DNA of 63,624 nt, counting the filler. It is 5 parts of 5 records of this genome, joined end to end, with 100 filler letters (N's around TTAATTAATTAA, not from the genome) between each part and the next. Parts side by side here need not be neighbours in the genome. Positions count along the whole stretch, not along the records: positions 25,767 to 54,417 come from SRR22947725_532; 4 more parts are not named here. The stretch is one strand, 5' to 3'. The translations under genes and the position numbers were made by a program. Shown here piece after piece: positions 13,398-55,491 of this stretch. A model generated the notes under the pieces. It was not told the origin of the DNA and did not search any database. It was given only the letters and a program-made list of their open reading frames with translations. Position 1 is the first letter of the stretch, and each line of letters opens with the position of its first letter.

Positions 13398-14825
13398 TTA
13401 TTTAATTTTATGATAATCTATTGTGTAAAAACAACAGGAAGAAAGTATCCAGAATATTCCATTCTTAGTTGAATTAAAAAACCATCCTCCGTCGTAAAGT
13501 AATCCATATGTAAAATATAGAAACAAAAATGCTAAGTATATTGTCATTTCTTCGTTCAATCTTTCACTTTTAGCTAAAAGTTTAAAGGAAAGAATGTAAA
13601 AAAGATTAAAAAATGCCAATACTCCTATTAATCCAAATTCTAAAGCAACTATATCAATTCCAAAAAAATTAGTCTGAGGAACAGGTCTAAATGCAGTGCT
13701 AGCTGAAAAACCTGTTACAGAATCTTCGGCTCTTGTACTTCCAGCTCCATAACCAAATATCATTTTACTAAAATCAGATTGTATAACTGTATAAAGAGAA
13801 TATGATATTCCCAAACTTCTTCCAAACCTTAAACCGCCATCTTCTCCAAACCAAATCATATTTGAGTATTCATTAGCATCAGAAAAATTAAATCTATTTA
13901 AATTAAATGATGTCACATTCTGGTTTTCTAACAAGCTTGTGATGCTTGAAATTCTTGGTACTATAAAAGCTGTAAAAACTATAAGAAATAAAAATAAAAT
14001 CTGAATAATTCTTTTTTGACTTATTTGAATCTTGAGATAGCTTCTTAATAAAAGAAAGAATAAAGGACTTAAAAAGCAAACATATATTGTAAATGATATG
14101 TCAGCATAAATAGAAAAAAATATCATTAAACAAAAAATAAAAAAGAGGGGAGTTTTTGAACGACCATTTATTGCTTTAATGCAGTAACTATAAAAAACCG
14201 TTGCAGATAAAAAAGAAAGGAATGCGGTACCACCATTTCCAAAAGTACCTGTATAAAAGTCAGCATTGGGCCCCCAATTAAGAAATGAGCCAGGGATACT
14301 TTGCAAAAAAACAAATGGAATTTGAATAATTAAAAACAAGGATAAAATATTAATTATTATATTGAATATTTCTTTGTGATCTATATCAGAAAAATAAACA
14401 TAAAATGCTAATAATAAAGGAGATGCAATCCACAAAAACCATCTTAAAATTTCAAATAGTGGAGAACCGCTTATAAAAGATCCAAATAATAAGGTAACTA
14501 GAATATATGAGATAGCGATTAGTACTTTTCTAAAAATACTTTTACCGTTCATTGTTATATCTTCTTTTGTTAAAAAAATAACAAATAGTAAAAAACAATT
14601 AACGCCAACAGGTAATAATTCATAAAAATCGTTAATATTAAAAAGCGGGATAAAAAATTTATAAGTCAACAAGAATGGTATGTATGTCAAAATAAAAATC
14701 TTACTATTATATATTGCTAATATAGACAAAAAAGCAAATTGAATTGGAATTAAAACAAAAGGAAGCTGATTCAAAATTATAGTTAAAAATAATAAAGTAA
14801 ATAAAGAAAATGCTGCGATCATCAT
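13398..14825 (-). CDS. Polytopic membrane protein, probable Wzy polymerase / O-antigen ligase-like
   Basis: About 11-12 hydrophobic segments, YTGTFG, a late periplasmic loop with FGYGAG...EFGLIG; sits in a glycan cluster. Confidence 0.6.
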   Translation of the reverse strand: MMIAAFSLFTLLFLTIILNQLPFVLIPIQFAFLSILAIYNSKIFILTYIPFLLTYKFFIPLFNINDFYELLPVGVNCFLLFVIFLTKEDITMNGKSIFRKVLIAISYILVTLLFGSFISGSPLFEILRWFLWIASPLLLAFYVYFSDIDHKEIFNIIINILSLFLIIQIPFVFLQSIPGSFLNWGPNADFYTGTFGNGGTAFLSFLSATVFYSYCIKAINGRSKTPLFFIFCLMIFFSIYADISFTIYVCFLSPLFFLLLRSYLKIQISQKRIIQILFLFLIVFTAFIVPRISSITSLLENQNVTSFNLNRFNFSDANEYSNMIWFGEDGGLRFGRSLGISYSLYTVIQSDFSKMIFGYGAGSTRAEDSVTGFSASTAFRPVPQTNFFGIDIVALEFGLIGVLAFFNLFYILSFKLLAKSERLNEEMTIYLAFLFLYFTYGLLYDGGWFFNSTKNGIFWILSSCCFYTIDYHKIK

Positions 14826-16558
14826 AAATAATTCTCAACTAAATATTTCATATTATTGAGCTTATAATCATCATTTCCAGTATTATTAAAAATTTGCAGA
14901 GGATTTTGTTTCAAAAAATCTAGGTTTTTCATTCCAAAACCAATTTTCTTTTTTTCTAATAAATTTTTGGGAAATTTCTGTTGAAATATTTTTTTTAATA
15001 AAAACTTATTTTCTTTATTATTAATCAAAGTCTCATCTAATGAGTGGGTTAATTCAACAATCCTATGGTCCAAAAAAGGTACACGCACTTCTAAGGAGTG
15101 TAACATGCTCATCATATCGACTTTCAATAAAATATCATTAACCATAAAATTTTTCAAATCAATATATTGAAGTCTAGATTTATGATTAATATTTTTTATG
15201 TTCCAGTACTTTCTATAAAGCCAGTACTGGTCGTAATCTTTTGGAATTTTCTCTTTTATGGATTCAGGTAAAATTTGATTCAAATAGGATTTAGTATATC
15301 CTCCTCTTAAATAAACATATCTTTCCAAATCATTTGAAATGCAATATTTTTTAAATTTAAAACCTCTTTGGAATTGTTTATTTATTAGGTGCTGCTTTGG
15401 ATCTATAAAACTATATATTGATTTAATAAAATTATATTTTGAGGATGCAGCATAAGAATTATACCAATTATAGCCATAGAATAATTCATCTCCCCCATCT
15501 CCTGACAGACATACGGTTACTTCTTTACTAGCAACATCTGCAATATGGTAGAATGGAAGCGTAGAGGTATCATAATGTAGATCGCCATACGTCTTCATTA
15601 AATCGAAAGTATTTAACTTGCTGTCCTTTACTGATTTTCTTATATGATTTGTTTTAAGGTGTCTTGCTATCTGAATATCATTGGTATATTGATCTCCAAA
15701 GTCTGCATAAAAAGTTTTGATATTTTTATGATTTTTTGATGCATAGTATGAAACTAAAGATGAATCTATTCCTCCGCTAAGAAAAGACCCAACGGGAACA
15801 TCTGATACTAATCTCATTTTTACACTATCATTAATTAAAAAATCAAGTTTATCCATGCTATCATCAACACTTAATTTGCTATTATTATTATGTTTTACAT
15901 CCCAATATTCCCTAATTGTAAATTTATTATTATAAAAATTTGCACAATTTCCTGGAAGTAACTTCTTAATATTACTATAAATTGTTTTTGTTTCCGGTAC
16001 ATATAAATAAGTAAAAAAATCTACTATAGAGGTATAATCAATTGATAACTTCTTATCTATTAGACTGACTATTGAATTAATTTCTGACGCAAAAATAAAA
16101 GTGTCATTATTCATATAATAGTAAAGAGGTTTTATTCCTAATCTATCCCTAGCAATAAAAATTTTTCCAGTTTTATTATTTAAAATTGCAAATGCAAACA
16201 TACCATTAATTTTGTCCAATAAATTTTCACCCCAAGCATCAAAACCGTTTAATAGTACTTCTGTATCCCCGTTGGTTTTAAATTTATAGCCTAACTTTTT
16301 AAGTTCTTGAGCAATTTTTTGATAATTATATATTTCACCATTAAAAACTATTGTATATAAATTATCTCTTGAACTCATTGGTTGATTAGCTGATTCTGAT
16401 AAATCAATAATTTTTAATCTTCTATGTCCTAACATTGAATTAGAATGTTCATAAACATCTCCAGAGTCAGGTCCTCTGTGGGTCATCAAATCTAATGATT
16501 TGTTGAATAGTTTTCTATCGAGTAAACGATTAGATTGAATGCCTAAGATACCACACAT
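14822..16558 (-). CDS. asnB: Asparagine synthase (glutamine-hydrolysing)-family amidotransferase, likely sugar amidation
   Basis: MCGILG, HRGPD, FNGEIYN, RDRLGIKPLY, FLSGGIDSS, LSGDGGDELFYGY, EVRVPFLDH. Confidence 0.88.
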   Translation of the reverse strand: MCGILGIQSNRLLDRKLFNKSLDLMTHRGPDSGDVYEHSNSMLGHRRLKIIDLSESANQPMSSRDNLYTIVFNGEIYNYQKIAQELKKLGYKFKTNGDTEVLLNGFDAWGENLLDKINGMFAFAILNNKTGKIFIARDRLGIKPLYYYMNNDTFIFASEINSIVSLIDKKLSIDYTSIVDFFTYLYVPETKTIYSNIKKLLPGNCANFYNNKFTIREYWDVKHNNNSKLSVDDSMDKLDFLINDSVKMRLVSDVPVGSFLSGGIDSSLVSYYASKNHKNIKTFYADFGDQYTNDIQIARHLKTNHIRKSVKDSKLNTFDLMKTYGDLHYDTSTLPFYHIADVASKEVTVCLSGDGGDELFYGYNWYNSYAASSKYNFIKSIYSFIDPKQHLINKQFQRGFKFKKYCISNDLERYVYLRGGYTKSYLNQILPESIKEKIPKDYDQYWLYRKYWNIKNINHKSRLQYIDLKNFMVNDILLKVDMMSMLHSLEVRVPFLDHRIVELTHSLDETLINNKENKFLLKKIFQQKFPKNLLEKKKIGFGMKNLDFLKQNPLQIFNNTGNDDYKLNNMKYLVENYL

Positions 16559-17625
16559 TAGATAAATATCCCTTTTTTCCTAATTGTATTTAATGTCAAA
16601 GTAATCCAAACAATATAAAACACTACAAAAGATGCTGAAGCCCCCAACCCGTTAAATTTATAAATCAAAATAATCATTATTGGAAGACAAAAGATGTTAG
16701 AAACCAACATATTTAAAAAAGACTCTTTAAAAAATCCTTTTGCAAAAAGTATGGGGGCTAAGGGAAGTGTAGCTATTTGTAGTAAAACACCTATTAGATA
16801 TATCAAGATCATTGGATATGAATTAAGATAGTTAGCTCCAAATAAAATCTCGATAAAAAAACTTCCAAAAAAGAAAAATATTATATAGCCTAAGATACCT
16901 AGCAAAGACAAGAGTGCAGATATTTTCATAGTAAATAATTTAGCTAAAGCGGTCTCACTGATTGAAAAAAGTCTCGATATTTCTGGATACATTGCCTGAT
17001 ATATTGAATCTAAAATCTTTAAAATAATATTAGAAATATCTTTTGCAATTTTAAAAAAAGCGACTATCTCAGGAGTCGAAAATTTACCTAGTATAACTAT
17101 GTCTAAATTTCTAGGAATTTGCTTTATAGATACATTTAATGAATGATATATAATCGTTTTTATTAAATTGAGTTTTTTAAATAAGGATCTATCAATCTTA
17201 CAAAGAAAAACGGTAAAAAGACTACGAAGGTTTTTAGTTAAAATATGATTAACTAAGAAAACAGAAAAAAGAGCTGAAATTGCTTGTGCAACTACTAACG
17301 CAATCGCAAAATTTTCCAAAGAAACAAAATTATAAGATACTACTAAAAAAAAACAAAATTTTAAAAATGCGTTTAACAGAGTATTCAATGCTTGGAATCG
17401 GAAATAATTATAAAATCTAAAAATGGCCATTGATATATTATTAAAAATTAGTGCAATTATGCTAAAACATAATATTCTTATTGTTGCAACATAATCTACA
17501 GGTATTTCAAGCTGAAAAATAAAAAATTTAGATAAACTAAGAGCTGCAATAAAACCAAATGTTAATGTAATGAGGTCTATAATAAAAAAATATTTTATGA
17601 GCATTGAAATGTTTTTAAACTTCTT
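16558..17625 (-). CDS. Wzx-type polysaccharide flippase (MOP family), 5'-truncated
   Basis: Multi-TM; LDIVILGKF...VAFFKIA, MYPEISRL, FNGLGASAS. Frame stays open to the contig edge. Confidence 0.75.
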   Translation of the reverse strand, partial: KKFKNISMLIKYFFIIDLITLTFGFIAALSLSKFFIFQLEIPVDYVATIRILCFSIIALIFNNISMAIFRFYNYFRFQALNTLLNAFLKFCFFLVVSYNFVSLENFAIALVVAQAISALFSVFLVNHILTKNLRSLFTVFLCKIDRSLFKKLNLIKTIIYHSLNVSIKQIPRNLDIVILGKFSTPEIVAFFKIAKDISNIILKILDSIYQAMYPEISRLFSISETALAKLFTMKISALLSLLGILGYIIFFFFGSFFIEILFGANYLNSYPMILIYLIGVLLQIATLPLAPILFAKGFFKESFLNMLVSNIFCLPIMIILIYKFNGLGASASFVVFYIVWITLTLNTIRKKGIFI

Positions 17626-17725
17626 NNNNNNNNNNNNNNNNNNNNNNNNNNNNNNNNNNNNNNNNNNNNTTAATTAATTAANNNNNNNNNNNNNNNNNNN
17701 NNNNNNNNNNNNNNNNNNNNNNNNN
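17626..17725. other. Artificial contig spacer
   Basis: 44 N + TTAATTAATTAA + 44 N. Confidence 0.98.
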
Positions 17726-17758
17726 GATTATCATAATGATACATTTGTAAAATAAATT

Positions 17759-18730
17759 ATGAAAGCTGTAGAAATTAAAAAAACTGGTGGACCTGAAGTT
17801 TTAGAACTTAAAGATATTACTTTAGATAAACCAGGACCTGATCAAGTAACAATAGAACAAAAAGCTATCGGGCTAAATTATATTGATACTTATCATAGAT
17901 CAGGTTTGTACCCATTAAACTTACCAATTGGCCTAGGTTTAGAAGGTGCGGGTATTATTACTGATATTGGAGAAAACGTTAAAGACTTTAAAGTTGGTGA
18001 TAAAATTTCTTATGCAGGTATTCCATTAGGTTCTTATTCAACACACAGAAATTACCCAACAAAAAATCTAGTGAAAGTGCCAGACGGTATTGATTTAGAA
18101 GTTGCTGCAACTTTAATGACAAAAGGTTTAACTACATTTTATCTACTGCATAAAACATTTCCTGTAAAATCAGGACAAACAATTCTATTCCACGCAGCTG
18201 CTGGAGGAGTTGGTCAAATATTTGGTCAGTGGGCCAAAAGTTTAGGCTGTACTGTTATAGGAACTGTTGGGTCAGATGAAAAAATAAATATAGCAAAAGA
18301 AAATGGTTATGATCATGTGATTAATTACAACAAAGAAGATTTTGCCAAAAAAGTTTTAGAGATTACAGATGGTAAAGGTGTTCCAGTTGTGTACGATGGT
18401 GTTGGTAAAGATACTTTAGATGGCTCTATTGAATGCTTGGCTGTAAGAGGAATGATGGTTTCATTTGGAAATGCATCAGGCCCTTTATCTGATATTAATG
18501 TGCCTAAAATGCTTCAGCCAAAAGGTTTGTATCTTGTAAGACCTGCAATGCAACAATATCTATCGACTAAAGAGGAGCTTGATGAAGCTTCAAAAATAAT
18601 GTTTGAAAAAATCAGTTCTGGAAAAGTAAAAATTAATATATTTAAAAAATATAAATTAGATCATGTTATTGAGGCTCATAAAGATTTAGAGGGCAGAAAA
18701 ATTTTGGGCCCAGCAGTTATACTTCCCTAA
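17759..18730 (+). CDS. qor: NADPH:quinone oxidoreductase (zeta-crystallin family)
   Basis: GGPEVL, IGLNYIDTYHRSGLY, HAAAGGVG, VYDGVGKDT, SFGNASG. Confidence 0.92.
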   Translation: MKAVEIKKTGGPEVLELKDITLDKPGPDQVTIEQKAIGLNYIDTYHRSGLYPLNLPIGLGLEGAGIITDIGENVKDFKVGDKISYAGIPLGSYSTHRNYPTKNLVKVPDGIDLEVAATLMTKGLTTFYLLHKTFPVKSGQTILFHAAAGGVGQIFGQWAKSLGCTVIGTVGSDEKINIAKENGYDHVINYNKEDFAKKVLEITDGKGVPVVYDGVGKDTLDGSIECLAVRGMMVSFGNASGPLSDINVPKMLQPKGLYLVRPAMQQYLSTKEELDEASKIMFEKISSGKVKINIFKKYKLDHVIEAHKDLEGRKILGPAVILP

Positions 18731-25024: not shown

Positions 25025-25666
25025 ATGAAAATTGCAATTATAGGTAGCGGTGGTAGAGAACACGCATTAGCTTCAACAATATCTAAATCTTCTTCTGTAA
25101 AAGAAATTTTTTGTATTCCAGGAAATGCTGGAACTTCAAAAATTGCAACTAATGTAATACTAGATATTGATGAGTTTGATAAAGTGCATAAATTTATTAA
25201 TGACAATTCTATAGATTTAGTTGTCGTAGGTCCTGAACAACCTTTAGTAAATGGAATTGTAGACTATTTAGAAAAGTTCAACATAAAAGTGTTTGGACCT
25301 AACAAAATCGCTTCTCAACTAGAGGGATCTAAAATTTTTACTAAAAAACTCTGTAAAAAATATGATATTCCTACTGCTAACTTTGGTATTTTTGAAAATA
25401 AAATTGATGCCAAAAAATTTTTAGAAAATGCTAAATATCCAAATGTAATTAAAGCAGATAACTTGGCTGCAGGCAAAGGAGTGTATATTTGCAATAATGA
25501 ACAAGAAAGTTTCATGGCAGTTGAAGAAATATTTAATGGAAAATTTGGAGAAGCTAAAAATGTTCTTATAGAGGAATTTCTTAAAGGTGAAGAGATGAGC
25601 TATTTTATAATTAGCGATGGAAACACCATTAAAAGTTTTGAAACTGCACAAGATCATAAAAGAGTT
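25025..25666 (+). CDS. purD: Phosphoribosylamine--glycine ligase, 3'-truncated
   Basis: IGSGGREHALA, PGNAG, VVGPEQPL, LEGSKIF, LAAGKGV, AQDHKR. Confidence 0.96.
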
Positions 25667-25766
25667 NNNNNNNNNNNNNNNNNNNNNNNNNNNNNNNNNN
25701 NNNNNNNNNNTTAATTAATTAANNNNNNNNNNNNNNNNNNNNNNNNNNNNNNNNNNNNNNNNNNNN
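25667..25766. other. Artificial contig spacer
   Basis: 44 N + TTAATTAATTAA + 44 N. Confidence 0.98.
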
Positions 25767-41971: not shown

Positions 41972-42749
41972 ATGAAAAAATATCATTTAGAACTCCGGCT
42001 AAAGTTGATCCAGCTTTAAATAATTTATGTTTTATAAAAGGAATTTTATGATTTATATAATCTTTTTCAATATTAATAACATTCTTTATTTCAGGGTATA
42101 ATATTTTAACATCTTGATGCGTTTCATAAACCCATTCATCAGGGCTTAATGAAAAATCAACTTCATTCATTAACATTAACTCATCTGATATCTGAAGATA
42201 ATCCATATTTAAATATTCAATAATATGGATATCCCAAACAATATGAAAATTTGTAGGCTTTCCTAAAAAGGAAAGTTTTATGTCATTACCTCCCCTGTCC
42301 TCAAACATACCAGTATGTAATGGCTGGTGAATGTCACCAACTAAATGGATTAAAAATTTTAAATAAAAAGATTTAGACTCTTTACTTGATTCAGGATTTT
42401 TTAAAACTCTAATACACTCTTTTAAAGTCGTTACTATATCACCTTTTGGATTTTTTTGAATATCCGAATATTCTTTATCTAAAGGCATATTGACATAATG
42501 CCATGGACTGTATTTCTTATATAAAGGATCTGATTTTATTTCATCAGCCCAAGTACTAGCACTAGCCAAAGATTCACCATCTAACAAATCATTTACTATA
42601 AGCTTAACATTAGAGTTAAGTTTTCTTTCAGCAATTTCTCCAACAACCTTATGTCCAATACTTCCCCAAACAATAGAATTATCAAATGAATTGAAAGAAG
42701 AAAAAATAAAAAATATTAGAAAAAGAAAATAGATATTAAAATTTTTCAT
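41970..42749 (-). CDS. S1/P1 nuclease, secreted
   Basis: WGSIGH, WADEIK, WHYVN, HLVGDIHQPLH, DRGGN, HIVWD. Confidence 0.93.
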   Translation of the reverse strand: MKNFNIYFLFLIFFIFSSFNSFDNSIVWGSIGHKVVGEIAERKLNSNVKLIVNDLLDGESLASASTWADEIKSDPLYKKYSPWHYVNMPLDKEYSDIQKNPKGDIVTTLKECIRVLKNPESSKESKSFYLKFLIHLVGDIHQPLHTGMFEDRGGNDIKLSFLGKPTNFHIVWDIHIIEYLNMDYLQISDELMLMNEVDFSLSPDEWVYETHQDVKILYPEIKNVINIEKDYINHKIPFIKHKLFKAGSTLAGVLNDIFS

Positions 42750-43321
42750 AAAGAATTAAATTTATTTCTGTTTTTAAAAAAATCAAATCCAAATTTTAAA
42801 AAAACAATAATTAAAATTATAAAGGCAATTACATGAAATTTTTCCTGATCTGCACCTTCAAAATCTCCTCTGATCCTTGCCAAATAAGTCACTAAAAAAA
42901 CTATGCCAACATAATAGAAATATACTAAATGGTAATTAATTCTATTAATTTTGTTAATTATAAAAGGATAAATAATAATCATCATATAAGCTATTGCACC
43001 ACCTGTAATTTTTACAGGGATAATTGGCAACTCATTTAAATAAACTGACATAGCTAAATAACCAAAATGAATCACGTGTAAAATTCCAAAAATCAACACT
43101 ATTTCCTTTAGTTTATTAAAATTTTTATTCCTAATTAATGAAATATAAAAAACATAAAAACAATACAAATAAATAATTAATGATAATCTGCCAGAATATC
43201 TTGCAGAATATCTAAAAACGTCACCAAAATTTTCTTTGTATAAGTAGGAAAATAAAAAAATCAATAATTCAGTGAATATTCCTAGAAAAAGTAAAGTATT
43301 GAATGTTATTTTTTTTTGCAT
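42746..43321 (-). CDS. Hypothetical membrane protein (about 6 TM), weakly ferric-reductase/MsrQ-like
   Basis: ARYSGRLSL and FGILHVIHF in TM segments. The family call is tentative. Confidence 0.45.
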   Translation of the reverse strand: MQKKITFNTLLFLGIFTELLIFLFSYLYKENFGDVFRYSARYSGRLSLIIYLYCFYVFYISLIRNKNFNKLKEIVLIFGILHVIHFGYLAMSVYLNELPIIPVKITGGAIAYMMIIIYPFIINKINRINYHLVYFYYVGIVFLVTYLARIRGDFEGADQEKFHVIAFIILIIVFLKFGFDFFKNRNKFNSL

Positions 43322-43332
43322 TTCGATTAAAA

Positions 43333-44874
43333 TTAATGAAAAATAATATGAATTAATATCAAACTAATTAAAAGACACCATCCCAAAATTTTATTTTTTT
43401 CCGATGAAACATGAATCAGTTTAAATACATTTTTAATTCGATTGAGATTAAAAATAATGGCAACAAAGAGTCCAGAAAAAATAACCCAAAAAGCTCTAAG
43501 GAAATAATTCATATCAGGGAACAAAAATTGAAGAACTATATTTAAAGGCAGAGTTAAAAGAAATGCAATTAAAATTGATTTTTTAGAGGGTTTTAAAAGC
43601 ATAACAGCACTACATATTAAAACTACAACACCACAATTAATATAATATCTAAGATTATTTAGAGTATGTGTAAAAGCAGAATCAGGATCATCAAATTTTA
43701 AATAAAGTAATATCATTGCCATCAGAAGAGCTGTAAATAAACTAAAAACAATCGCTCTTCTGCCAGATCTTATCTTTTGAAAATCATTAGCCTTTTTATT
43801 AATATATTTTGAATATATGTCAACTGACCACAAAGTAGCTAATGAATTAAATGTCGAATCAACAGTACTCATAAGTGAAGCAAACAAACCACATAAAACT
43901 ACCCCTTTTAAACCTATTGGCAAATAAGTTTTAACTAAATATGGAAATGCTAAGTCTGGTTCAGCTAAACTGTCTCCCAAAATTCCATACAAAGCAATTC
44001 CAGGAATTACTATTATTACAGCCATTAAATATTTAATTAATCCTCCTATCATTAATCCAGATTGAGCATGAGAAACACTTTTTGCCGCAAGGGCTCTTTG
44101 CATTACAGTCTGATTAGCACACCAATAATTAATATTTAAAAAAAATAATCCAAGCAAATGAGTCCATGGTAGAGTAGAATGACTAGCTGGTAGATGAAGA
44201 TGCATTTTTTCAGGTGTTTTAACATATAATTGTTCCCACCCACCTAATTGATTAACAGCAATAAAACACACTACAATCCCGCCAATAAGTAATATAGAAA
44301 ATTGAATTATATCAGTTTTAACAACAGCATTCAGTCCTCCTAAATATGTATAAATCGCTGAGAATATCCCTAAAATACAAATAAGTATTGCTATTCTTAA
44401 AATTCTATTTTCATGTAGAAAAGAAAGCTGTTCTCCAAAGACCATTTCCGCAGCATATGCTCCCCAAAAAAGAGCAGCTCCAAGTGTAATAGTAGAAAAT
44501 AACGCAATATTGCTTAATGAATAGAAAAGGGCAATTTTATCTCCTAACTTTATTTTTATAAATTGTGTTATTGTTGTAATTCTTTCTTTTAAAAAAAGGG
44601 GAACAAAAATAAATGTGGCAATTAAAATACCCTGAACAGCATTAATTTCAAGATTCGCCTGAGCTAGTCCATATAAATATGCAGATCCCATCATACCAAG
44701 AAATTGATAACCTTGAATGTTTGTAGCAATTGTGGACAACGCAACTGAATACCATTTAAGGTTTCTATTGCTAAGAAAATACTCGTCAGCTGTACTTTTT
44801 TTATTAACCTTTCCTTTAATTGCCACCAAAAAAATTAAAATAAAATAGAATATAACTATAGTAAAATCTATCAT
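43333..44874 (-). CDS. Sodium:solute symporter (SLC5, vSGLT-like sugar transporter)
   Basis: EYFLSNR, TNIQGYQFLGMMG, YTYLGGLNAVVKTD, YWCANQTVMQRALAAKS, ASLMSTVDSTFNS..TLWSVDIY. Confidence 0.9.
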   Translation of the reverse strand: MIDFTIVIFYFILIFLVAIKGKVNKKSTADEYFLSNRNLKWYSVALSTIATNIQGYQFLGMMGSAYLYGLAQANLEINAVQGILIATFIFVPLFLKERITTITQFIKIKLGDKIALFYSLSNIALFSTITLGAALFWGAYAAEMVFGEQLSFLHENRILRIAILICILGIFSAIYTYLGGLNAVVKTDIIQFSILLIGGIVVCFIAVNQLGGWEQLYVKTPEKMHLHLPASHSTLPWTHLLGLFFLNINYWCANQTVMQRALAAKSVSHAQSGLMIGGLIKYLMAVIIVIPGIALYGILGDSLAEPDLAFPYLVKTYLPIGLKGVVLCGLFASLMSTVDSTFNSLATLWSVDIYSKYINKKANDFQKIRSGRRAIVFSLFTALLMAMILLYLKFDDPDSAFTHTLNNLRYYINCGVVVLICSAVMLLKPSKKSILIAFLLTLPLNIVLQFLFPDMNYFLRAFWVIFSGLFVAIIFNLNRIKNVFKLIHVSSEKNKILGWCLLISLILIHIIFH

Positions 44875-44880
44875 AAATAT

Positions 44881-46008
44881 TTATTTTCTTAATCCGTTTC
44901 CTAAAGGACTATCTGGATTCGATTTAGGTACTCTGTTAAATTTTTTTGAAAAATGAATATTATTGAATTTTGGTAAAACATATTTAGCAAATAATTCACA
45001 TTCATCTTGATGGGGATATCCAGACAGAATAAATGATTTTATACCCATATCTACATATCTCTTTAATTTATTGTAAACCTGATCTGGATCTCCAACAATT
45101 GCAGCTCCACATCCAGATCTAGCTAATCCTATTCCAGTCCAAAGGTTAGATTCTACATAATAATCTTTATCAGACCTTGTTCTTAGTGAAGATTGTATTG
45201 AAACTCCTAGTGATTTTGCATCCTGAGCTCTGTTTTTAATATCCTCACCTTTTTCAAAATCTAAATTTGAGATTAATTTATTAGCATATTCTTTAGCTTC
45301 TTTCTCTGTCTCTCTTACAATTACGTGAACTCTAAGTCCAAACTCAACTGTTCTATTATAAACAAGTGCCTTAGTTTTCATATTGGATATCAGAATTTTT
45401 AATTTATCCTCGGTATCTGGCCACATTAAATATACATCACAATGCTCAGCACACAAATCAACTCCATCTGGTGAATAACCACCAAAATATAGTAAAGGAC
45501 CACCATTTTCTTGAAAAGGCTTAACTGGTGCCGATGGTAAATTAATATTATAAAAATCTCCCGTAAAGTTAATTTCGTCCTTTGTCCAAGCTTGTTTTAA
45601 TATTTCTATAACTTCTCTTGATCTTGCGTATCGCTTTGAAGATTCAAGATTACTTCCTGGTAAATTAGAGGATATTATATTTATTGTAAGTCTTCCTTTT
45701 AAAATATGGTCTAACGTTGCTATAGCTCTGGCTAACATTGGAGGGTGAACCTCACCACACCTTATTGCTGCAAGAAAATTTATTTGTTTAGTTAAGGTGG
45801 CCATTGCAGAAACATATGTCAGAGTATCTTGACCTACTTGATAAGATGAAGGACATAATACATTAGTATAACCTAACTTATCTGCTGTTTTAATAATTCT
45901 TGATGTATTTTCCCATGTGCTTTTATACTTTGGATTTCTTGATCCTAAAACGTCATCATCTCCATCACATATGGGAGCAAACCAAGAAATTTCCACATCA
46001 TTTATCAT
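44881..46008 (-). CDS. LLM-class flavin-dependent monooxygenase, sulfoquinovose monooxygenase (SmoC/SquD)-like
   Basis: Motifs I recall from SmoC-type enzymes: EISWF, LCPSSYQVGQDTL, LAAIRCGE, ATLDHILKGRLTINIISS, RSREVIEILKQAWT, GGPLLYFGGYSP, HCDVYLMWP, GLRVH.IVR, LWTGIG.ARSGCGAA, SGYPH, C-terminal RVP..P..PLG.G.R. Confidence 0.78.
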   Translation of the reverse strand: MINDVEISWFAPICDGDDDVLGSRNPKYKSTWENTSRIIKTADKLGYTNVLCPSSYQVGQDTLTYVSAMATLTKQINFLAAIRCGEVHPPMLARAIATLDHILKGRLTINIISSNLPGSNLESSKRYARSREVIEILKQAWTKDEINFTGDFYNINLPSAPVKPFQENGGPLLYFGGYSPDGVDLCAEHCDVYLMWPDTEDKLKILISNMKTKALVYNRTVEFGLRVHVIVRETEKEAKEYANKLISNLDFEKGEDIKNRAQDAKSLGVSIQSSLRTRSDKDYYVESNLWTGIGLARSGCGAAIVGDPDQVYNKLKRYVDMGIKSFILSGYPHQDECELFAKYVLPKFNNIHFSKKFNRVPKSNPDSPLGNGLRK

Positions 46009-47665
46009 AATATTTTATTTTTTTAAACATTAAAGCATCCCAAGCAAGTAATTCAATTTGATTAGATGAAATTCTTGGTTTCGTATTTAGATTAGAAAAC
46101 TCTAAACTGTATTCTGTTAAATTATTAAAATTATAATTTATTAAACTATCAGACATGTTTAAAATAATTAAATATGTTGTTTTAAGTCCAACTCTTTGAT
46201 AAATAAATATGTTTTGATGATTAGGGTCTAAATCAAAATAATGTCCGTAAATAAGATCTTTTGACTGTTTTCTAATCTGTAAAAGTTTTCTGTAAAAATG
46301 AAAAATCGAATCCACATTATTCAAGTCATTTTCAACGTTGATTCTATCATGATTTGGATTAGATAAAAACCAATTATTATTTCCATTACTAAAACCTCCC
46401 TTCGTGCCGCTGCTCCACTGCATTGTTGTTCTGGAATGATCTCTTGATGTTTTATTTAAATGCAATATATATTCTTTTTTACTTATTCCTGAACTTATTG
46501 CTTTACTTAGATTTCCTAGAACTTCTAAATCATCAAACTGATTTAGCTCGGAAAAATTATAGTTTGTCATACCTATTTCTTCACCTTGGTATAGAATAGG
46601 TGTTCCTCTTTGAGTTAAAGTTAGCATAGCTAGCAATTTTGCAGATTTAATTCTATAGTCCTTATCATTTCCATATTTACTTACACTTCTTGGATTGTCA
46701 TGATTATTTAAAAAAACTGTAGGCCAGTGAAACTCATCTACACTAGACTGAGTGTTAAATAATTTTTTTAATTGAGCTAAATTCCATTTGTTTTGAATCC
46801 AATTTTCACGACCAATTCTAATAATATCAAATAAAAAAACTAAATCTAGTTCCTCTTCTCTTTCATCAGATAATTGGATCATTGTATCCTCACTAATACC
46901 AAATGCTTCACCAATTGAAAGAATATCATATTTAGAAAGAACCTTTGAATTCATTTCTTTCAAAAATTCATGTAGCCTTGGTCCTGAAGAATATACTTTC
47001 TCTGGATTTAAAAGTTCTTTTTTTGATAAGTTATTAAAATCTTGATCTTTGGAAATAAAAGGGATAACATCCATTCTAAAACCATCAATTCCTTTATCTA
47101 ACCAAAACTTCATAACATCATAAACCTCTTCTCTAACTTTATTATTTTCCCAATTTAAATCAGGTTGTTTTTTTGAAAAATAATGCAGATAATAATCATT
47201 AGAAATTGGATCTTTTTCCCAAGCAGAACCTCCAAAAAAAGAAGTCCAGTTATTTGGAGGAGAGTTTTTATCACCAGCTTTCCAAATGTAATAATCTCTA
47301 TACTTATTGTCTTTTGAAGATTTACTTTCAATAAACCAATTATGCTCATCACTGGAATGATTTACAACTAAATCTATGATTAATTTCATTTTTCTAATAT
47401 GTATTTCATTTAGTAACAGATCAAAATCCTCCATGGTTCCGAATTCTTCCATTACTTTCTTGTAATTTCTTATATCGTATCCATTATCTTCGTTAGGAGA
47501 ATCAAAATGAGGGCTAATCCATATTATATCAATCCCTAATAATTTTAAATAATCTAACTTTAAAATTATTCCTTTAATGTCCCCTATTCCGTCGTTATTA
47601 GAATCATAAAAAGATCTTGGATAAATCTGATACACAACTTGTTCCTTCCACCACTTTCTAATCAT
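45998..47665 (-). CDS. GH13 alpha-glucosidase (oligo-1,6-glucosidase subfamily)
   Basis: [22 protein letters not shown], catalytic DGFRMDV / IGEA / [14 protein letters not shown]. No signal peptide. Confidence 0.9.
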
Positions 47666-47802
47666 GTTTTTTTCTTACTTGACATTCTACATTTCTGACT
47701 ACAATAAATAACATTATCCCAGTTTTTTTCCCATTTTTTTCTCCATGAAAATGGAAAATTACAAATAGGACAAGTTTTTTGAGGAAGATTATATTTTTTC
47801 AT
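47662..47802 (-). CDS. DUF2256 small Cys4 protein, 46 aa (not in the ORF track)
   Basis: [51 protein letters not shown] overlap with the sulfatase and ATGA overlap with GH13. Confidence 0.85.
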
Positions 47803-49337
47803 TAATTAAACAAAGAATGTTCATCTGGCCATGGGACTATTGAATTAGTTATTTTGTTGTAAGGCATTTGTGCATTAACTGATTTTAAATATTTTGTTAA
47901 AACATTAGCTAGTAACTGAGATTTTGAAGTGTTTACAGAAATTAAATTATTATTTTCAGAAATATCCTTCTCCAAATTATACAGTTCAATGATTTGAGTA
48001 TCATGAAAATAAATAAATTTCCATTTACCCTGTCTGACCGCACTGTAACTACCTATTCCAGGTCCAATTGGTCCCCACCAATTAGGATAATGCCAAAACA
48101 ATGGCTTTTGTTCAACAGTTTCGTTGTTTAACAGAGGAACAAAACTTTGACCATCAATATTTTGCACAAAACTACTTTCTTCACATTTTGTAAATTCTAA
48201 AATTGATGGAAAGAAATCGTCAATTATAACTGGGTGGTTAATTTCTCTAATATTAGTTTTATGAAATGGTGAATAAACAATCATAGGAACTCTTATACCT
48301 CCCTCATATATTGATCCTTTTCCACTTTTTAAAGGATAATTATGATTATGCTTTTCTCCCTCTCTAGCAACAGCACTCAAGCCTCCGTTATCAGACATAA
48401 ATACAACAATTGTATTTTTTAGAACATCCTTATTTTCAAGCTCTTTTAAAACAACACCTAATGCATGGTCCATACTTTCTACCATTGAAGCATATTTAAT
48501 TTCTGAGTTTTTTAAACCAATATTTTTATATTTTTCAACAAAACGATTATCCTCCATTAATGGTGCATGAACATTATATAAAGAAAAATAAAGAAAAAAA
48601 GGAGATTTTGAATTAATGGGTTTTTGTAATTTTTCTAAAACTTCTTCACTTAAAGCTTGAGTTAGAAAAATGTCTTTTCCATGATATTTTTCAAGTCCTG
48701 GAACTGCCCATATTTTATTTTTCGAATTATTATTTCCAAAATTATCTACACCCAAATAACTTTGAGGAGCACCAGCAGCGTGACCTGCTATATTAATGTC
48801 AAAACCAATATTTAATGGATTTGAAGATGGATATCCAATTGCACCAAGATGAGCCTTTCCTGCATGAATAGTATAATATCCATTGTCTTTTAAAATTTGT
48901 GGAAGTGGAGTAGCATAAATTGTATTTGAAATCGAATCTAAAGTTGACAGTCCATTATAATTCCAATCAGGAAACTCAAAAATTTTGTGATTAATTTCTG
49001 CTGGTTTTTTTTTATTAGGATTGAGAGTCCAATTAGTAACTCTATGCTTTGCAGCATTCATTCCTGTCATCAAACTTATTCTTGATGGTGAACAAACTGG
49101 AGTTGCATAAGCATTAGTGAATTTCACGCCCATATTAGCTAATATTTCCATATTAGGTGTATTGTAAAGCCTATTGAATTTAGTTTCGTTCTTCCAAAAT
49201 GAAACGGAAGTATCCTGCCATCCTAAATCATCTACCATAAACAAAACTATGTTAGGCTTACTAATTTCATTTGAGGAATTACAAGAAAGAAATAAAAAGG
49301 TAGTTAAAACAAAAAATGATCTTAATAATGTCATCAT
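47802..49337 (-). CDS. Formylglycine-dependent sulfatase (S1 family), lipoprotein
   Basis: Lipobox [49 protein letters not shown]. Start likely 49337 or 49334. Confidence 0.9.
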
Positions 49338-49367
49338 AACAATATACAAAAATGAAAAAAAATATAC

Positions 49368-54519: not shown

Positions 54520-55491
54520 CGTTATGTGCTAACCTCGAACGCCCCTGAAACAAAAGATAACGATTTTACTTGGAAAGATTTTCAAGCAAAAAATAATAAC
54601 GAACTAGTTGCTATTTATGGAAATTTCATTAATAGGGTAGTAGTTCTTACACATAAATATTATGATGGCACTGTTCCAAAAAGAAATAATTTTTTAGATG
54701 GTGATAAAAAGGTGTTAAAACTGATTGATTTATCTATTACAAAAATTGAAAAATCTATTCATAAGTTTAGATTTAGGGAGGCATGTAATGAATTAATTAA
54801 CATTTCTAGGATTGGAAATAAATACTTAGCTGATCAAGAGCCTTGGAAAATAATCAAAGAAGACAAAGCAAGAGTAGAAACAGTTATGTATGTGTCTTTA
54901 CAAATTTCAGCTATTTTATCTGTCATTAGCGAGCCATTTTTACCTAACACCTCAAAAAAGCTACAAAATATTTTAAACTCTAAAGATCACTTAACAGAAT
55001 GGACATGGGATAATTTAAATAAAAATATGACCCTCATAAAAACTGGTGTTAATATTAATAATGCCGAATTATTATTTACTAAAATTGAGGATAAAGAAAT
55101 TGATTTTCAAATCTCAAAACTCAATTCTTCTAAAAAATCTAAATCTATAGTTAGCAAAAAACAAGAGGTTAATATAAATGACTTTTCAAAACTAAATTTA
55201 AAAATAGGAACTATTTTAGAAGCTAAAAAAATTAAAAAATCTAAAAAACTCCTTTTATTAAAAGTAGATATTAAAGATGAAGTTCGAACTATAGTTAGTG
55301 GCATAGCAAAATCTTATAATCCTCATGATATAGTTGGCACTAAAGTTGTTGTTTTAACAAACCTAGAGACAAAAGTAATTGCTGGAGTTCAAAGTCAAGG
55401 AATGGTATTATTAACAAAAGACGAAAATGATATAGATGTTTTTATATCTCCTGATAATATTTCTACAAATGACGGATTAGATATTTCCTAG
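54520..55491 (+). CDS. metG: Methionine--tRNA ligase, C-terminal part with tRNA-binding domain, 5'-truncated
   Basis: RYVLTSNAPETKDNDFTWKDFQAKNNNELVAIYGNFINR, GNKYLADQEPWK, RTIVSGIA, SQGMVL. Confidence 0.93.
   Translation, partial: RYVLTSNAPETKDNDFTWKDFQAKNNNELVAIYGNFINRVVVLTHKYYDGTVPKRNNFLDGDKKVLKLIDLSITKIEKSIHKFRFREACNELINISRIGNKYLADQEPWKIIKEDKARVETVMYVSLQISAILSVISEPFLPNTSKKLQNILNSKDHLTEWTWDNLNKNMTLIKTGVNINNAELLFTKIEDKEIDFQISKLNSSKKSKSIVSKKQEVNINDFSKLNLKIGTILEAKKIKKSKKLLLLKVDIKDEVRTIVSGIAKSYNPHDIVGTKVVVLTNLETKVIAGVQSQGMVLLTKDENDIDVFISPDNISTNDGLDIS

Follow-up and report, generated by a model that had tools for sequence, protein, structure and literature searches.

In a DNA stretch of 63,624 nt composed of five joined parts, hereafter called the window, the part SRR22947725_532 carries three genes on the minus strand that encode a luciferase-like monooxygenase (LLM; 44881-46008), a member of the sodium solute symporter family (SSS; 43333-44874) and a glycoside hydrolase of family 13 (GH13; 45998-47665). 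As judged from sequence comparisons, the LLM and the symporter probably constitute the core of a Bacteroidota variant of the sulfo-SMO pathway, in which sulfoquinovose (SQ) is desulfonated by the SmoC monooxygenase, and the GH13 would be a conventional alpha-glucosidase that is probably not the sulfoquinovosidase (SQase). The 375-aa LLM matches PF00296 Bac_luciferase (3.8e-52, residues 6-324), the 513-aa symporter matches PF00474 SSF (1e-42) and scores above the cut-off of TIGR00813, and the 555-aa GH13 matches PF00128 Alpha-amylase (4e-148, residues 13-474). A preliminary description, made from the letters of the stretch, had presented these genes as a co-oriented and tightly packed SQ desulfonation module, and open reading frame (ORF) calls together with the Pfam matches bear out this layout at the same coordinates, with an overlap of 11 nt between the GH13 and LLM genes (45998-46008) and a gap of 6 nt between the LLM and symporter genes (44875-44880).

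The same description had placed the LLM with SmoC/SquD rather than with ordinary SsuD enzymes, and this placement is upheld by structure matches, a model cut-off, clade-specific residues and phylogeny. Among solved structures, the LLM is matched best by 7olf (7.9e-137) and 7oh2 (1.1e-133), followed by MsuD 7jv3 (1.2e-61) and SsuD 1m41 (4.4e-55), and its identity to 7olf is ~55% as counted by hand from the pairwise alignment. SsuD is still the nearest NCBIfam model, but the LLM scores 265.9 bits against the equivalog cut-off of 518.2. The entries 7OLF and 7OH2 are the SmoC enzymes of A. tumefaciens and R. oryzae (RoSmoC), both reported by Sharma et al. (2022, PMC8795539) to be specific for SQ and inactive on SQ-glycerol, and the same source describes in RoSmoC the constellation Trp206-Arg236-His238-Tyr341-His343, which the window LLM keeps as W196, R226, H228, Y331 and H333. 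The six motifs that had been quoted as SmoC-type are present at residues 52, 80, 169, 189, 289 and 296 and align to the same residues of the SmoC structures, with the exception of H189, which is Q in 7OLF and 7OH2. An alignment of 89 SmoC/SquD-clade sequences with three SsuD-like outgroups revealed 34 positions at which one residue, missing from the outgroup, is common to at least 97% of the clade, and the window LLM matches the consensus there. Its identity amounts to 52-55% with the LLMs of Ruegeria, Marinovum algicola and Rhizobium sp. SL42, to 45-49% with the Novosphingobium, Sphingobium and Rhizobium WSM4643 type, to 38% with an SsuD-like Methylobacterium LLM and to 32-36% with two SsuD rows.

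A phylogeny, which the preliminary description had proposed, was calculated with IQ-TREE in quick mode from the 92 aligned rows, and a branch with 100% support in the Shimodaira-Hasegawa-like approximate likelihood ratio test (SH-aLRT) sets the 89 SmoC-like rows, the window LLM included, apart from SsuD. In a quick tree of a 33-row subset, 30 SmoC-like rows are likewise split from SsuD by a 100% SH-aLRT branch. In the 92-row tree, the sphingomonad type is sister (92%) to the alphaproteobacterial SmoC type together with all Bacteroidota, whose monophyly receives 73% support. By these comparisons, membership of the LLM in the SmoC/SquD clade is firm, and a strict bracketing of the Bacteroidota LLMs by characterised enzymes is likely, although not proven. 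The LLM is hence predicted to be an FMNH2-dependent SQ monooxygenase (FMN, flavin mononucleotide), converting SQ, FMNH2 and O2 into 6-oxo-glucose and sulfite.

The second line of evidence comes from the conservation of the symporter beside the LLM. When one genome for each prokaryote species was scanned, 302 LLM relatives were retrieved, and the best 80 of these (65-100% identity), on which the locus counts are based, come nearly all from marine Bacteroidota and include Flavobacteriaceae with Candidatus Arcticimaribacter, Saprospiraceae, Cyclobacteriaceae, Chitinophagales and Microscillaceae. An orthologue of the symporter with at least 50% identity lies directly downstream of the LLM gene on the same strand in 65 loci and within 1.4 kb of it in five more; one locus has only a 28%-identical SSS, four have at least 1.7 kb downstream without any SSS, and in the remaining five the locus ends less than 250 nt from the LLM gene. 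Of the 75 informative loci, which represent several Bacteroidota families, 70 thus have the orthologue beside the LLM, a pairing far beyond chance. Recurrence of both GH13 and SSS beside Bacteroidota homologues had been set as a test in the preliminary description. The symporter passes it as the conserved partner, whereas the GH13 fails it, since only eight loci, each from the genus of the window, have the gene and the other 72 lack it. The same downstream symporter was also seen in a contig labelled Euzebya sp. (Actinomycetota; L048), whose LLM groups on very short branches with those of two Flavobacteriaceae loci (L041 and L050), and this contig is probably mis-binned.

Among structures, the symporter is matched best by vSGLT (6.7e-53) and then by human SGLT1/2, and the pairwise alignment with vSGLT was mapped onto an alignment of the 65 SmoC-linked symporters. 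Equivalents of vSGLT N64, Q69, E88, N260, Y263, W264 and K294 are kept in all 65, and three positions are altered in 63 of them, namely in all the marine orthologues, with E68 replaced by Tyr, Q428 by Asn and T431 by Arg (Y56, N406 and R409 of the window protein), the two exceptions being the divergent L062 protein and an Emticicia protein. The same Tyr/Asn/Arg set occurs in all ten further Flavobacteriaceae loci described below, and none of 11 non-orthologous SSS proteins from the same loci has Arg at the T431 position. In vSGLT, Q69, E88, N260, K294 and Q428 are described as hydrogen-bonding galactose hydroxyls (PMC8037263), and E68 is described as part of the same network, with the C6 oxygen of the sugar contacting T431 in simulation (PMC4270436). 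Loss of an acidic residue and gain of an Arg at the C6 side of the hexose are as would be expected for a 6-sulfonate, and the symporter is predicted to be a Na+-coupled importer of SQ or of an SQ glycoside.

A SmoC-clade gene is a minority trait, found at E <= 1e-100 in 18 genomes of a set of 301 Flavobacteriaceae (one for each genus, that of the window apart) and in five of 401 genomes sampled across the phylum. Ten further Flavobacteriaceae loci were examined, and 92 loci in total were scanned for neighbours. Five of the ten, from genomes of 3.9-5.5 Mb, share an extended cluster around the LLM and symporter genes, in which a PF03601 transporter, a LacI regulator, an NADPH-FMN reductase (FMN_red, PF03358), the LLM, the SSS, SusD and an FG-GAP/ASPIC-UnbV protein are present in all five, a SmoB-like aldo-keto reductase (AKR) in four, and SusC and a molybdopterin enzyme of the sulfite-oxidase family in two each. 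The PF03601 family is annotated as 'putative sulfate exporter' beside alphaproteobacterial clusters. The best structure match of the AKR is SmoB (7bby/7bbz, 2e-67), narrowly above YdhF-type reductases, and over all 92 loci such an AKR adjoins the LLM in 19 and FMN_red in five. No GH31, GH188 or GH13 glycosidase was found within 7 kb in the five extended clusters. Around the LLM-symporter pair, an FMN reductase and a 6-oxo-sugar-type reductase come together with a sugar regulator and genes for sulfite handling, which lends independent, contextual support to sulfosugar desulfonation.

Two further groups of proteins were seen in these neighbourhoods. FG-GAP/ASPIC-UnbV proteins of ~1100 aa flank the extended cluster next to SusC/D in L148, L150, L151, L152 and L154 (for example L150:2796-6131 and 14378-17887), and could be surface or periplasmic processors of sulfolipid or SQ glycosides. 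In six loci, the AKR-LLM pair is adjoined by members of another protein cluster (L052:6938-7975, L071:5999-6997 and L086:6067-7056 among them). The L086 protein is clearly an alpha/beta-hydrolase, that of L052 gives only a weak match (8e-05), and no Pfam match was obtained for that of L071. This cluster could represent a lipase or esterase acting on sulfolipid, and the Marinovum algicola cluster likewise has an acetyl esterase.

Taken as a pathway, the SGLT-type symporter would bring a sulfosugar into the cytoplasm by means of the Na+ gradient, and the LLM, as an orthologue of SmoC, would cleave its C6-S bond with FMNH2 and O2 to yield 6-oxo-glucose and sulfite. Since most clusters lack a glycosidase, the transported substrate is most likely free SQ. 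In the streamlined genus of the window, the supply of FMNH2 and the reduction of 6-oxo-glucose to glucose would be left to unlinked genes, for which PF01613 flavin reductases and a YdhF/SmoB-type AKR are candidates in relatives, and the larger Flavobacteriaceae would keep both functions within the cluster, together with the sulfite-oxidase-family enzyme, the PF03601 exporter, LacI and SusC/D. The GH13 would have joined the cassette only in this genus and would be co-expressed with the core. Unlinked PF01613 flavin reductases were found in four of five SmoC-positive genomes of the genus (61-88% complete), and a 289-aa YdhF/SmoB-type AKR in 13 of 27 genomes, comprising six of eight SmoC-positive and seven of 19 SmoC-negative ones (with a pseudogene in one of the seven), which makes the AKR a candidate reductase and not a correlated partner. 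As to expression, six metatranscriptomic runs contain 39-57% of the sampled words of 42746-49349, and in all four runs examined contigs at 95-100% identity span most of this block. Such contigs cross the SSS/LLM/GH13 junctions (X16, 44638-46082; X14, 44863-46130) and also the junction of the GH13 gene with the upstream DUF2256 and sulfatase genes, which suggests that the cassette is transcribed in seawater.

Several observations weigh against assigning the core to the sulfo-SMO pathway with SQ as its substrate. The five 'sulfonate' residues of the LLM are also found in SsuD and are necessary but not discriminating; the base of the clade, from which the Bacteroidota, alphaproteobacterial SmoC and SquD groups emerge, is a polytomy in the 33-row tree, and the rows of the trees do not include the A. 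tumefaciens and R. oryzae SmoC proteins themselves. The role of Arg409 is drawn from a pairwise HMMER alignment with nearby gaps and not from a structure. The window has no flavin reductase or AKR, and the unlinked AKR of the genus matches YdhF-type structures better than SmoB, besides its presence in SmoC-negative genomes. Contigs of the RNA libraries may include DNA carry-over, and a contig over two genes is no proof of a single transcript. Thirteen loci have a GntP permease gene immediately upstream of that for the LLM, and 10 have a glycerate kinase gene there, these loci being mostly of the Candidatus Arcticimaribacter type (the L018-L040 group); a GlpD-like glycerol-3-phosphate dehydrogenase gene is situated upstream in Ca. 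A. forsetii (L047:5163-6860), and FGGY kinases are found in L086, L148 and L152. These glycerol- or glycerate-related neighbours hint at a glycoside as the substrate over free SQ, and the GntP, glycerate kinase and GlpD-like genes might reflect the C3 aglycone of such SQ glycosides. Furthermore, a SmoC-clade LLM with 48% identity resides on a Spirosoma oryzicola plasmid (L134:6171-12381) in a non-sugar context, with an amidohydrolase on one side and an amino-acid permease on the other, after which come cytochrome c and the SoxC sulfite dehydrogenase, behind SusC/D. This long-branch LLM may desulfonate a different, nitrogen-containing sulfonate, and the SmoC/SquD clade may contain other substrate specificities.

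It could accordingly be argued that the LLM and the symporter act on another sulfonate, either a different sulfosugar or a small organosulfonate, and that the likeness to SmoC indicates family and not substrate. The 52-55% identity to the LLMs of canonical alphaproteobacterial clusters and ~55% to 7olf, the polytomy at the clade base, the Spirosoma relative and the GntP and glycerate kinase genes would agree with such a view. We nevertheless consider it improbable, as the LLM is paired with a sugar-type transporter in which the vSGLT residues for hexose binding are retained, SmoB-like AKRs stand beside the LLM in the 19 loci mentioned, and the LLM matches the 34 clade-invariant positions of the canonical-cluster enzymes. 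The plasmid of Emticicia oligotrophica DSM 17448 also has an LLM with an SSS, its LLM sharing the long branch with that of Spirosoma. The length of this branch, together with the lack of the Tyr/Asn/Arg set in the Emticicia symporter, separates it from the marine clade. SQ desulfonation by a SmoC-type enzyme thus stays the preferred assignment for the LLM-symporter core.

The distribution of the cassette was followed in the genus of the nearest genome, G001. The LLM gene is present in eight of 27 species genomes of this genus and in none of 34 genomes of other genera in the first sample, and the GH13 gene is present in exactly the same eight. In a genome with flanks 84-96% identical to those of the window (G007), ~340 nt separate the S1/P1 nuclease gene from that for the sulfatase, and the genes for GH13, LLM, SSS and a 191-aa membrane protein downstream of the symporter are all missing. 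Because all four are absent together, they form one insertion/deletion unit, and the cassette behaves as a presence/absence unit between the sulfatase/DUF2256 pair and the S1/P1 nuclease gene. The flanking sulfatases were considered as part of the module and rejected, since G007 keeps both of them without the cassette and only one locus outside the genus (L064) has sulfatases nearby.

Concerning the GH13, the protein opens directly with the catalytic domain and leaves no room for a signal peptide, which places it in the cytoplasm. Its best structure matches are sucrose isomerase 3gbd (1.5e-180) and oligo-1,6-glucosidase 1uok (4.5e-167), with the GH13_23 structure 3wy1 following at 4.5e-79. The residue set, with the nucleophile and transition-state Asp, includes D60/Y63, H103, R197/D199, the acid/base Glu, the region IV H/D and the SRD Arg, the numbering being that of B. 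cereus. These catalytic and -1 subsite motifs, including SRDHSRT, do not differ from those of 11 homologues encoded away from SmoC in other Flavobacteriaceae, and the set matches that listed for MsGH13 and HaG. The SmoC-linked GH13 clade has two specific substitutions, I251 and N431, and has gained no basic or aromatic residue; the GH31 SQase, by comparison, is described as binding the C6 sulfonate of the -1 sugar via an Arg/Trp/Tyr triad (Sharma et al. 2022, PMC8795539). Outside the genus, the closest homologues (63% identity) are found in LacI-MFS-glyoxalase-GH13 operons, and those at a greater distance are often preceded by an unrelated SSS gene. On this basis, the GH13 looks like a conventional cytoplasmic exo-alpha-glucosidase of the oligo-1,6-glucosidase/sucrose-isomerase-like kind, added specifically in this genus.

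The preliminary description had read the locus differently, with the symporter importing SQ-glycerol, the GH13 serving as a non-classical SQase that frees SQ and the LLM desulfonating it. The 11-nt overlap of the GH13 and LLM genes and their occurrence in the same eight genomes speak for this model, as do searches for a known SQase in five SmoC-positive genomes of the genus. Here, PF01055 (GH31) was found in none of five (61-88% complete), and no GH188-like gene was found in five (68-88% complete), the best match to a Roseobacter GH188-type protein being 24% identical with E 3e-10; the GH188-type query itself matched the Gfo/Idh/MocA oxidoreductase entries 8zn9, 8qc2 and 8qc3, which we take to be SqgA structures. 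Moreover, SmoC is reported to reject SQ-glycerol (PMC8795539), so that an imported glycoside would need prior cleavage. The model is nevertheless quite unlikely, given that the GH13 is missing from most loci and from all five extended clusters, that it shares every catalytic and -1 subsite motif with enzymes of ordinary sugar operons and has gained no basic residue, and that its nearest relatives outside the genus belong to LacI-MFS-glyoxalase-GH13 operons. In addition, MsGH13 (GH13_23), which has the same set of conserved residues and originates from a sulfo-SMO cluster of Marinovum, is reported by Li et al. (bioRxiv 10.1101/2023.03.31.535182) as a broad alpha-glucosidase inactive on the p-nitrophenyl glycoside of SQ (PNP-SQ), and belongs to another subfamily, so it is a precedent and not a proof; the same preprint states that no GH13 SQase is known. 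Thus neither a role of the GH13 as a conserved part of the module nor one as SQase was sustained, and the enzyme is probably not the SQase of this cassette. Because the Marinovum cluster has a GH13, the placement of such a gene beside SmoC is not unprecedented.

The strict linkage of GH13 and LLM is explained at the least by their physical adjacency, and a functional tie is possible, either as co-regulated use of alpha-glucosides of phototrophs or as the last step of a route in which desulfonation comes first. In the latter, an SQ glycoside such as SQ-glycerol would be imported and desulfonated as such by the LLM, a reductase would then produce 1-O-alpha-glucosylglycerol, and the GH13 would release glucose and glycerol, with no SQase needed. 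Such a route would explain why a canonical alpha-glucosidase and not an SQase is tightly linked to SmoC, as well as the GH13 of the Marinovum sulfo-SMO cluster, and is in line with the lack of a known SQase in the genomes searched and with the presence of the GH13 in none of the 19 SmoC-negative members of the genus. A GH13 homologue at E <= 1e-120 exists in 59 of 299 other Flavobacteriaceae genera searched, so that a streamlined genome would need its own copy. Val after the nucleophile is typical of enzymes cleaving links to a primary alcohol, and the GH13 has such a Val (MDVIPF). The GlpD-like gene and the FGGY kinases noted above would fit the release of glycerol, and residue 48 of the LLM, four residues before the CPSSYQ motif, is Thr in all nine GH13-linked LLMs and Arg in 68 of 80 other clade members. 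With H352 and S354 included, the LLMs of the genus differ from the rest of the clade at just three positions; most loci have no glycosidase nearby, and A. tumefaciens SmoC is reported to neither bind nor turn over SQ-glycerol (PMC8795539). Desulfonation of the glycoside is therefore regarded as unlikely, and import and desulfonation of free SQ by the LLM-symporter core, with the GH13 as a conventional alpha-glucosidase beside it, is retained as the preferred explanation.

Gene packing goes beyond the three genes on both sides. A DUF2256 small zinc-ribbon ORF of 46 aa (47662-47802, minus strand; PF10013, 9.4e-20), which is context outside the module, bridges the upstream sulfatase (47802-49349) and the GH13, with a TAATG overlap at the sulfatase stop and an ATGA overlap at the GH13 start, both read from the sequence. 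On the other side, an ORF for a multi-pass membrane protein of 191 aa (42746-43321, minus strand; family unassigned) lies 11 nt past the symporter gene and is followed by the S1/P1 nuclease gene. It has no Pfam or NCBIfam match and belongs to the insertion/deletion unit in most members of the genus; its homologue is 61-84% identical in L011-L014, and no match was found in L043. Its look-alikes in a protein atlas are hypothetical Bacteroidota proteins, one cluster of which is automatically named ferric oxidoreductase domain protein, which can serve as a lead only. A sulfite exporter or an electron-transfer protein was considered and not assigned, the sole signal being this look-alike. The window has a G+C content of ~28%, its housekeeping genes include those for IMPDH, LpxK and KdtA, and its nearest relatives are small-genome Flavobacteriaceae represented by metagenome-assembled genomes (MAGs) and single-amplified genomes; a Bacteroidota origin fits these housekeeping genes and nearest genomes. 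Elsewhere in the window, an ORF of 229 aa (25025-25714) spans, of PurD, just the N-terminal domain and a portion of the ATP-grasp domain, and another (54526-55491) just the C-terminal end of the catalytic domain and the anticodon-/tRNA-binding parts of MetRS, and these two genes may be frameshifted or mis-assembled.

With respect to the literature, a 2026 review (PMC13436972) assigns the sulfo-SMO pathway to Rhizobiales and Roseobacter, names Bacteroidota, in the text available, only for 'sulfoglycolytic gene homologs', and describes SQ uptake by aquatic bacteria as largely unknown. A survey of the same year (PMC13372026) demands SmoB and SmoC within ten ORFs and names Actinomycetota and Spirochaetota, and a 2025 study (PMC12780224) counts smoC in Tara data at 60% identity to a Roseobacter query, with Bacteroidota not mentioned in the accessible part of the article. 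Searches combining sulfoquinovose with sodium solute symporter yielded no SSS-family SQ transporter in the literature. No account of a Bacteroidota SmoC-symporter module was found there either, in agreement with the preliminary description, although supplementary tables may list it, and the LLM-symporter core is well supported as a Bacteroidota variant of the sulfo-SMO pathway that has apparently not been described before. Bacteroidota would then be a second phylum in SQ desulfonation, with Flavobacteriaceae as well as MAGs of Saprospiraceae, Cyclobacteriaceae and Chitinophagales, and a concrete candidate for a Na+-coupled SQ importer with a candidate sulfonate-binding Arg can be named. Surveys requiring SmoB and SmoC within ten ORFs would miss the minimal form with SmoC and symporter, and smoC counts from Tara Oceans at the 60% cut-off might include or exclude Bacteroidota genes by a few percent identity. 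Should the route with desulfonation of the glycoside first hold true, it would explain the GH13 alpha-glucosidase of the Roseobacter sulfo-SMO cluster, and some of the smoC signal in the ocean that is at present attributed to Roseobacter would come from Bacteroidota.

In comparison with known systems, the architecture differs, as had been claimed, from the Agrobacterium, Roseobacter and Novosphingobium clusters, which have ABC, TRAP or MFS importers and GH31 or GH188 SQases. The A. tumefaciens smoA-I cluster (PMC8795539) shares the SQ-specific LLM clade and the same predicted chemistry, from SQ to 6-oxo-glucose and sulfite and then to glucose, but has an ABC importer with the SmoF binding protein where the window has an SGLT-type Na+ symporter, and it has the GH31 enzyme SmoI, whereas the window is without GH31, SmoA or SmoB equivalents. 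The larger flavobacteria differ from A. tumefaciens in their FMN_red (PF03358) flavin reductase and in the additional SusC/D, sulfite-oxidase-family enzyme and PF03601 exporter. Roseobacter-type clusters (Ruegeria pTHAF33_a, Marinovum algicola pMaD9 and the Rhizobium sp. SL42 plasmid) are alike in the marine setting and have the LLMs 52-55% identical to that of the window. They contain GntR or another regulator, a Gfo/Idh/MocA (GH188-type) gene, annotated only as 'putative dehydrogenase' in Marinovum, an AKR, a PF01613-type flavin reductase and a TRAP or ABC importer, and some members also carry a GH13 (MsGH13 of Marinovum sp., GH13_23), the window GH13 being of another type. The sulfo-ASMO/SquD type of Novosphingobium, as seen on pLA3 of N. 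pentaromativorans, has an LLM of the same clade, 45-49% identical, with an adjacent AKR, a GH31-sized alpha-glucosidase, a TonB receptor, LacI, glycerol kinase and glycerol-3-phosphate dehydrogenase and no SSS; SquD has reportedly been characterised in N. aromaticivorans. With SsuD/SsuE and MsuD, the window LLM has in common the fold and the W/R/H/Y/H constellation, but SsuD pairs with the SsuABC transporter and the window LLM with a sugar-type symporter, across the long branch of 100% support. Finally, the symporter keeps the sugar-binding residues and K294 of vSGLT/SGLT1 and differs from vSGLT in the Tyr, Asn and Arg that replace E68, Q428 and T431 throughout most of the SmoC-linked clade, a combination that predicts an anionic substituent at C6 of the transported sugar.

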